Assembly (NCBI GenBank): GCA_964016885.1
Contig: OZ024762.1
Location: 15,996,001-16,060,000, forward strand
Length of the DNA stretch: 64,000 nt
Direction of reading: 5' to 3'
From: Eledone cirrhosa
Lineage: Eukaryota
Positions 22,008 through 22,542 of this stretch are shown here, piece after piece; positions within the stretch are counted from its first letter, which is position 1; each line of letters starts with the position of its first letter. The notes beneath the pieces were generated by a model that saw only the letters and a list, made by a program, of their open reading frames with translations, did not search any database and was not told where the DNA came from. Position numbers and translations under genes: made by a program.

Positions 22008-22542
22008 ATGTCGATACTAAATTCGATGTTTCTCCCTCGCTTATTAAGCCGACAACTCGTTGTTTTGAGCCGATTCAACCCCACTGTTTCACATCACCCG
22101 CTTTCAAAGCAGCCTTTGGGCCCTACTTTTGCGTGTATTTTCACAAAACCTCTGTCATGTTTAACGTCAAAGCATGTGTTATTTCAAACGAAGGGTTTGT
22201 TCTCTCAGACACGCCAACAGATCATGTGGAAGTTGGCTGTTCCTTGCAGAAGGAAGAGTTCCCAAGAAAAAATGGATCCTAGGATTATTTACATGGTTTA
22301 TGCTTCCATAACAATTGGCGCTTTACTTCTCGGAACTATTTTGTTTGCTCGCCTAAGAGACGTTTACAAAAAGTTTGTCGACGGCATTGACTTATATTAT
22401 GACCCTCCATTTGGCAGACGATGTAAACTCATGAAATACAAAGGTGTTGTTCTGCCGGCAATGCTAGAAAAGGATTTACCTGTGATTAGAAACTTTGAGG
22501 TACGACCTGATGACGTCTGGGTCGTATCATGGCCACGTTCAG
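22008..22542 (+). CDS. Sulfotransferase (cytosolic SULT fold, SULT4A1-like), coding exon 1; alternative in-frame start at 22272
   Basis: Open frame from ATG 22008 through ATG 22272 to ...YKGVVLPAM...RNFEVRPDDVWVVSWPRS-G. Donor TCAG|gtgagt at 22543 (phase 1) splits the 5'-PSB motif SWPRSGTTW, as in animal SULT genes. Confidence 0.9.

Follow-up and report, generated by a model that had tools for sequence, protein, structure and literature searches.

Textbooks divide animal sulfotransferases into two classes, those dissolved in the cytosol and those anchored in the Golgi. A gene of the octopod Eledone cirrhosa raises the question of whether these two placements are the only ones. In the window, the whole stretch of 64,000 nucleotides that was analysed (contig OZ024762.1, positions 15,996,001 to 16,060,000), a domain of the cytosolic type follows a long acid-free leader and a hydrophobic helix within one reading frame. 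To which compartment would such an enzyme be sent, and in which membrane would it lie? Our literature search, in which PMC5700196 was represented by part of its text, found no description of a sulfotransferase with leader and anchor, and the targeting remark in one related work is about heme enzymes; most subscription journals lay outside its scope, and an earlier notice is possible.

The gene and its sulfotransferase domain

The gene lies on the forward strand, and its spliced frame of 1290 nt (429 aa plus stop) is divided among six coding exons, with GT..AG borders at 5/5 introns. Coding exon 1 (22008-22542) carries leader, helix and domain start together, and neither PF00685 nor any other Pfam family matches this exon alone. 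Codons 1-86 (22008..22265) are acid-free, basic and rich in Ser and Leu, a predicted mitochondrial presequence by composition and octopod orthologues. Near its end, RRKSS (residues 81-85, 22248..22262), invariant in the three compared sequences, is a predicted processing-peptidase site of the R-2 type. The ATG of Met89 (22272..22274) follows and then, at residues 93-114 (22284..22349), a single proline-free hydrophobic helix, a membrane anchor as predicted from an orthologue model and 39 relatives. The remainder of the exon (22350..22542) encodes the charged flank RLRD..KK, then a linker, then the first part of the domain as far as the loop that binds PAPS (WPRS/G). Coding exon 2 (23723..23934; PF00685, E 1.1e-11) contains the catalytic Lys231 and His233 (His codon 23884-23886), and coding exon 3 (26401..26527; PF00685, E 3.5e-11) contains the RNPKD..VS motif that binds the 3'-phosphate. 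Coding exon 4 (29142..29239) is placed by its AG/GT ends and frame. Coding exon 5 (31896..32079; PF00685, E 1.2e-10) holds a full-length lid (loop 3) and the beginning of the RxGxxGxWK motif, and coding exon 6 (35595..35728) ends in the stop TGA and lacks the KxxxTVxxxE dimer motif. The lengths of 429 and 341 aa given by the original prediction for starts at 22008 and 22272 agree with this spliced frame, and the hydrophobic stretch followed by RLR that it described is found at residues 93-114 and 115-117. Upstream of the coding region, ACTTCCGG (21973..21980, forward strand), which we take to be an ETS-type element, occurs as the sole copy in the window, 28 nt 5' of the ATG at 22008, and is a candidate promoter element.

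PF00685 matches residues 165-411 of the orthologue with an E-value of 1.1e-72. The model of the orthologue superposes on mouse SULT1D1 with a TM-score of 0.92 and an rmsd of 1.9, and the top listed matches are enzymes of the cytosolic type. The Eledone protein has PRSGTTW at 176, KTH at 231, RNPKD at 255 and RRGQVGDWK at 384. Among the 39 family members described below, the catalytic His is present in 38, the 3'-phosphate motif in 36 and GxxG in 37; the Lys of the PAPS loop is replaced by Arg in 11/39, as in the solved Anopheles AGAP001425. The dimer motif is found in 0/39 family members and 12/17 vertebrate SULTs. The domain, the fold and the PAPS-binding and catalytic motifs are thus those of the cytosolic SULTs (PF00685; SULT1/2, AGAP001425), but the gene adds a leader and a membrane helix, so that the protein is cytosolic-type by fold only; in a set of 44 sequences of solved chains, no match extends N-terminal of residue 130. 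These motifs make it likely that the sulfotransferase is catalytically active. As for its acceptor, we would tentatively guess at a sterol or another lipophilic alcohol or phenol, by analogy, because of the membrane anchor and the SULT1C2 precedent: in the part of PMC11411706 available, isolated mitochondria given rat SULT1C2 and PAPS show more cholesterol sulfate and higher respiration. In that system SULT1C2 was added as a soluble enzyme. Entamoeba mitosomes make PAPS, and the sulfotransferases are described as cytosolic in the excerpt of PMC9796589; both cases share with the predicted Eledone enzyme a tie between sulfation and mitochondria.

Leader and helix in octopods and other protostomes

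The leader has the composition that was claimed for it: residues 1-86 include no Asp or Glu, 6 Lys, 6 Arg, 11 Ser and 13 Leu, and the first acidic residue of the protein is at position 87, just after the RRKSS region. When the leader DNA was base-shuffled 200,000 times, the frame was open and acid-free in 0.017% of cases and acid-free in 1.5%. One of the other two forward frames is also open over the 86 codons, but it encodes 9 Asp/Glu. A Pfam search of residues 1-118 returned no known domain family. The modelled leader of the O. bimaculoides orthologue (AlphaFold) is low-confidence and mostly coil, with a helix at residues 2-13 that is likewise of low confidence, and the amphipathic moment of the Eledone leader, 0.49 at residues 10-27, is not above that of shuffles (p 0.13).

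Orthologues were sought with exon 1 as the query against longer proteins. Two of the 876 candidates matched, from O. bimaculoides (427 aa) and Argonauta (425 aa), with the whole query covered; O. vulgaris, O. sinensis and another Argonauta entry are found in the clusters to which these matches belong, and the nearest named proteins to the gene are octopod. The leader frame put forward by the original prediction persists in these sister species: in 5/5 octopod orthologues it is open, Met1 is aligned and no Asp or Glu precedes RRKSSQ, and the indels among the orthologues are in-frame. Leader identity is 54/84 with O. bimaculoides and 30/77 with Argonauta; domain identity is 196/243 and 180/243, respectively, slight underestimates, with exon 6 off by one base. 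In 5000 runs of neutral substitution, a leader both open and acid-free was retained in 3.2% at the O. bimaculoides distance and 0.22% at the Argonauta distance; these runs were substitution-only, and the stop-free part is inflated, database proteins being open frames by selection. For the absence of acids alone, the same simulation gave 22% and 4.7%.

The helix is kept better than the leader, with 28/32 identical residues against O. bimaculoides, and its presence in the octopod orthologues lets the claim of a predicted anchor stand. The best 19-residue Kyte-Doolittle mean within residues 93-114 is 2.04. AlphaFold places this helix at residues 89-123 of the O. bimaculoides orthologue, with pLDDT >90 from about residue 91, and models the domain with confidence (mean pLDDT 80).

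Relatives were drawn from the best 120 of 303 matches and the best 150 of 29,188 (stored proteins P0001-P0285), and were picked solely by a hydrophobic 17-mer that lies 60-115 aa N-terminal of the PAPS loop and is itself preceded by 18 aa or more. Dropping 15 near-duplicates left 43 proteins, removal of two Macrostomum duplicates left 41, and leaving out P0086 and P0189, which have no basic leader and are placed elsewhere in the tree, left 39. Leader, helix and sulfotransferase domain occur together in these 39 related proteins, and the named ones span five protostome phyla. The named molluscan members come from cephalopods, seven gastropods, a chiton (two genes), an oyster and a mussel. Worms are represented by the tubeworm Lamellibrachia and the flatworms Macrostomum and Clonorchis, and arthropods by the mite Dinothrombium and the crustaceans Hyalella and Caligus; Didymodactylos, presumably a rotifer, is a further named member. 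No insect, deuterostome or cnidarian is named among the matches listed, and in a SULT4A1 search for invertebrate deuterostome relatives the named matches were all vertebrate (best 120 of 342). In the ESM Atlas, the best cluster (0.96) has 79 members, mostly Mollusca, and may be the protein's own cluster. Within the animal's own genome (3.0 Gb), PF00685 gave 43 matches among 74 candidates, and the search for paralogues with the helix gave one match among three candidates scored, the gene itself.

A first tree, which had 123 rows and did not include SULT4A1, joined every leader-bearing row in a single group of 44 (SH-aLRT 92) that also holds soluble insect SULTs; the leader-bearing proteins are weakly supported as monophyletic (54/12 with 14 rows, 90/85 with 12). 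Entries from Priapulus, Solemya and Nucella have the helix at or close to their N-terminus. Truncation accounts for some entries of this kind: in the cluster shared by P0161 and P0285, the one that opens with the helix is a leader-bearing protein cut short. In the Priapulus cluster (P0152, P0283, P0284), the 338-aa members start near the hydrophobic helix and have no long leader. The helix is absent from P0027, P0029, P0037 and P0149, which lie within the gastropod and crustacean branches of the family, either through loss or through truncated models. Outside the family, the sulfotransferases P0222, P0244 and P0189 have a hydrophobic N-terminal stretch without a basic leader, which suggests membrane anchors gained separately.

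Leader lengths across the family range from 20 to 177 aa, and the leaders are scarcely alignable between classes. Those of 86-177 aa are longer than the usual presequence range, 8-80 aa in the excerpt of PMC11452304. Their composition is shared. The first 30 aa carry a net positive charge in 41/43 helix-bearing proteins against 35/84 controls, the mean number of Asp/Glu is 0.7 against 4.2, and, over 41 rows, leaders contain 10% Arg, 11.5% Ser and 3.8% Asp+Glu, compared with 5%, 6% and 14% in the domains. The spacing from helix to PAPS loop is near-fixed (74-101 aa), the helix is proline-free in 38/41 rows, and the flank C-terminal to it is net positive in 41/43.

Cleaved mitochondrial presequences follow a recognizable pattern (PMC11452304 and PMC3673636, in part), including the R-2 rule, which puts an Arg near the cut site (PMC3673636, in part). 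We looked for such motifs within the 45 aa that immediately precede the helix, in leaders of at least 40 aa (n=35), with local shuffles as reference. R-x-x-S occurs in 25/35 leaders against 15.3 in shuffles (p 0.001), the rows being related; the controls S-x-x-R, its reverse (16/35), and K-x-x-S (14/35) are at chance. Across this motif, which lies mostly 15-30 aa N-terminal of the helix, acid density climbs from 6/375 to 30/370. The form R-x-x-S[ST] is found in 14/35 against 3.6, although it was picked after the sequences had been seen and among related rows. The strict R-x-[FLY]-[SA] is enriched (9/35) but so is its reverse (10/35), and thus it is not direction-specific; an Oct1-type motif occurs in the leaders at chance frequency.

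Basic, acid-poor and with an Arg-specific, directional motif, the leader is, as far as its letters tell, supported as mitochondrial presequence-like. The comparisons also indicate that it is real and not an octopus oddity, and that the predicted leader-and-anchor design is the mark of a broad protostome subfamily, which the original prediction had overlooked. Its central proposal, a mitochondrial presequence combined with a membrane anchor, gains support from octopod conservation, family composition and the statistics of the cleavage motif, and we consider mitochondrial targeting of the sulfotransferase likely.

Predicted placement and its rivals

We hypothesize, with somewhat better than even confidence, that leader and helix send the sulfotransferase to mitochondria and anchor it in the inner membrane, its domain facing the intermembrane space; if mitochondrial targeting is granted, this orientation becomes the probable one. 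Translation would begin at 22008, and TOM and TIM23 would pull the leader through. A matrix peptidase may then cut at about RRK/SS, leaving some 10 residues in the matrix, and import would be arrested by the proline-free helix and the charged residues C-terminal to it, after which the helix would be released sideways (stop-transfer). The domain could use cytosolic PAPS entering via outer-membrane pores and would sulfonate a membrane-embedded acceptor. That the N-terminus reaches the matrix is suggested because a motif of the matrix-peptidase type and a step in acid density lie 15-30 aa before the helix. The absence of proline from a helix is given as a stop-transfer mark in the excerpts of PMC2171449 and PMC11452304, so that arrest at the inner membrane would be favoured; for import arrest, the available part of the review PMC11452304 stresses negative charges. 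With known stop-transfer proteins of the inner membrane, the gene shares a presequence-like leader, an R-2-type motif, a proline-free helix and a charged flank, but here a sulfotransferase is the passenger and the flank is basic, not acidic, and the case is known from sequence.

Alternatively, the protein could be held in the mitochondrial outer membrane by its helix and point its enzyme domain towards the cytosol, the compartment that makes PAPS and the side on which vertebrate SULT4A1 is found. Outer-membrane signal anchors combine a moderately hydrophobic helix with basic flanks, and the family helix resembles them in its mean KD17 of 1.94 and in the basic residues on both sides; some relatives also start at or just before the helix. 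SULT4A1 itself binds the cytosolic face of the outer membrane, according to the available part of PMC8803991. We nevertheless regard this placement as unlikely: the peptidase-type motif and the acid step just mentioned argue for a leader that goes further, and at least one of the helix-first entries is a truncated leader-bearing protein (P0161, P0285).

Somewhat less likely still is a start at 22272 that would yield a 341-aa signal-anchor form in the ER or Golgi, alone or beside the mitochondrial one. The original prediction proposed such an isoform and called this ATG the second in frame; it is the fourth (22008, 22026, 22224, 22272). Its context is strong (A at -3, G at +4), and Met occupies the position in 5/5 octopod orthologues, but Val replaces it in the two nearest non-octopod proteins, so that Met89 is octopod-specific. 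In the family, a Met within 20 aa of the helix is at chance level (10/35 leaders against 24% expected). One protein is represented by four RefSeq accessions in O. bimaculoides and three in O. sinensis, and transcript ends may vary; every one of these accessions, however, encodes the 427-aa form.

The upstream ATGs bear on the same point. A contig from run X4 (1499 nt, depth 8.5) is identical to 22098-22543 and departs from the window at the splice donor, unlike three DNA-sized runs, which continue to 22663. All four runs are contigs, none recorded as RNA, and contigs cannot show a start site; likewise, X4 has no cover on 21863-22066, which says nothing on where transcription starts. The contig begins at codon 31, 174 nt 5' of the ATG at 22272, and leaves 22008-22097 uncovered. 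From 22098 to the stop, the spliced sequence is 1200 nt, and the remaining 299 nt would end in a 3' repeat at 36027. We infer that the contig is spliced mRNA reaching at least 174 nt upstream of 22272. It then includes ATGs 22157, 22174 and 22224, the first two out of frame and opening frames that run past 22272 to end at 22282 and 22311. Because these ATGs precede it on a transcript-like contig, leaky scanning to 22272 would be blocked, and an ER/Golgi isoform would require a separate downstream start, which is not supported. The frame from 22157 has 41 codons and that from 22174 has 45, and their overlap is possibly chance, possibly a brake on downstream starts. A second forward frame, the one that holds ATG 22157, is open over the leader for about 119 codons (21925-22282, forward strand) and ends just beyond 22272; 5 nt 5' of 22008, another out-of-frame ATG opens a 5-codon frame that overlaps the start (22003-22020).

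Topology also speaks against the ER/Golgi form. By the positive-inside rule, a basic flank stays on the cytosolic side, and the basic flank after the helix would keep the domain cytosolic, not luminal. Golgi type II sulfotransferases have a short cytosolic tail, one N-terminal helix and a luminal PAPS-dependent domain of other families. The Eledone protein shares with them the single N-terminal helix before a PAPS-dependent domain but has a tail of 86 aa and a cytosolic-type fold, which places it outside the Golgi class.

We judge it improbable that leader and helix form a bipartite signal that is cut twice, so that a soluble enzyme ends up free in the intermembrane space, or that the helix goes on into the matrix. 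A second cut by Imp or a rhomboid is a known fate of stop-transfer proteins in the excerpt of PMC11452304, and the helix is rich in small residues. On the other hand, the helix outconserves the leader, stands at a near-fixed distance from the PAPS loop and is continuous to residue 123 in the model, and passage into the matrix is disfavoured by the absence of proline (PMC2171449, in part). Finally, the leader might be 5' untranslated sequence that annotation pipelines have carried into the frame, with the protein starting later. This would suit the missing X4 cover on 22008-22097 and the poor conservation of leader sequence, but it is hard to credit beside an open, acid-free, Met1-aligned frame maintained across in-frame indels in 5/5 octopod orthologues and the same composition in named proteins from five phyla.

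Relation to SULT4A1 and surroundings of the gene

SULT4A1 gives the second-best match among solved chains overall (183.6 bits over residues 136-351), and NCBI names the octopod proteins 4A1 or 4A1-like. The trees place it in two ways. A FastTree of 201 rows (20 were skipped, having no matched motif, and near-duplicates were thinned, as were many rows from fish and mammals) nests SULT4A1 within the leader-bearing family with support of 81-88. IQ-TREE groups it with vertebrate SULTs, at 96 in a quick run of 62 rows and 87/87 in a careful run of 31 hand-picked rows. AU tests (p 0.258 and 0.32) reject neither grouping tried.

The available parts of PMC8803991 and PMC11275347 describe SULT4A1 as mitochondria-associated and with no known substrate; the former places it on the cytosolic face of the outer membrane and states that an invertebrate homologue has not been reported. 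In the accessible text of a tick study, clade A unites SULT4A1, Drosophila St1-4 and one tick gene, SFT-142, of 388 aa and six coding exons. This length and exon count would fit the leader-bearing family. SULT4A1 differs from the Eledone protein in several respects: it has about 284 aa, with neither leader nor helix, its lid is shortened, its attachment to the outer membrane is peripheral, and the dimer motif is retained in 5/5 sequences, whereas the Eledone protein has 429 aa and a full lid. It is conceivable, though doubtful, that the family is the invertebrate counterpart of SULT4A1. The bilaterian ancestor would then have had a mitochondrial membrane sulfotransferase, of which protostomes kept presequence, anchor and lid, and vertebrates lost these and retained the mitochondrial tie. 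Were this kinship true, the invertebrate enzyme, with its intact lid, would offer a working model for finding the substrate of an orphan brain protein.

Because the design is common to mollusc, worm, rotifer and arthropod relatives, it is likely, judging from these proteins, that many invertebrates have a sulfation enzyme fixed inside mitochondria. If so, there would be a third placement beside the two classes, a cytosolic-fold enzyme, conserved in five phyla, that brings its own mitochondrial address and anchor, and a mitochondrial sulfation step in many invertebrates would be carried out by enzymes now labelled 'cytosolic' or '4A1-like'.

Some observations concern the DNA around the gene. 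A divergent gene at 21550-21860 was considered for its coding-like composition and rejected on account of stops in the frames, the lack of a Pfam match and repeat depth: DNA runs are about 200-fold deeper than unique sequence over most of 21608-21862. The interval 21506-21862 is, by DNA depth, a coding-looking, moderately repeated element with no Pfam match, presumably the decayed end of a retroelement from its look. A GC-richer block at 47000-51000 includes a minus-strand ORF of 189 aa with no Pfam match above the cut-off, which by its look we take to be part of a retroelement. In intron 3, a GT-rich minisatellite of about 2 kb (27150-29110) ends about 30 nt 5' of exon 4. An AT-rich tandem unit of about 40-55 nt forms long arrays on both strands, inside and outside the gene (12529-14940, 29880-30580, 31520-31700 and 32700-35380), one copy of which yields a spurious 803-aa ORF. 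Among the relatives, the chiton Liolophura has two leader-bearing paralogues, P0025 and P0139.
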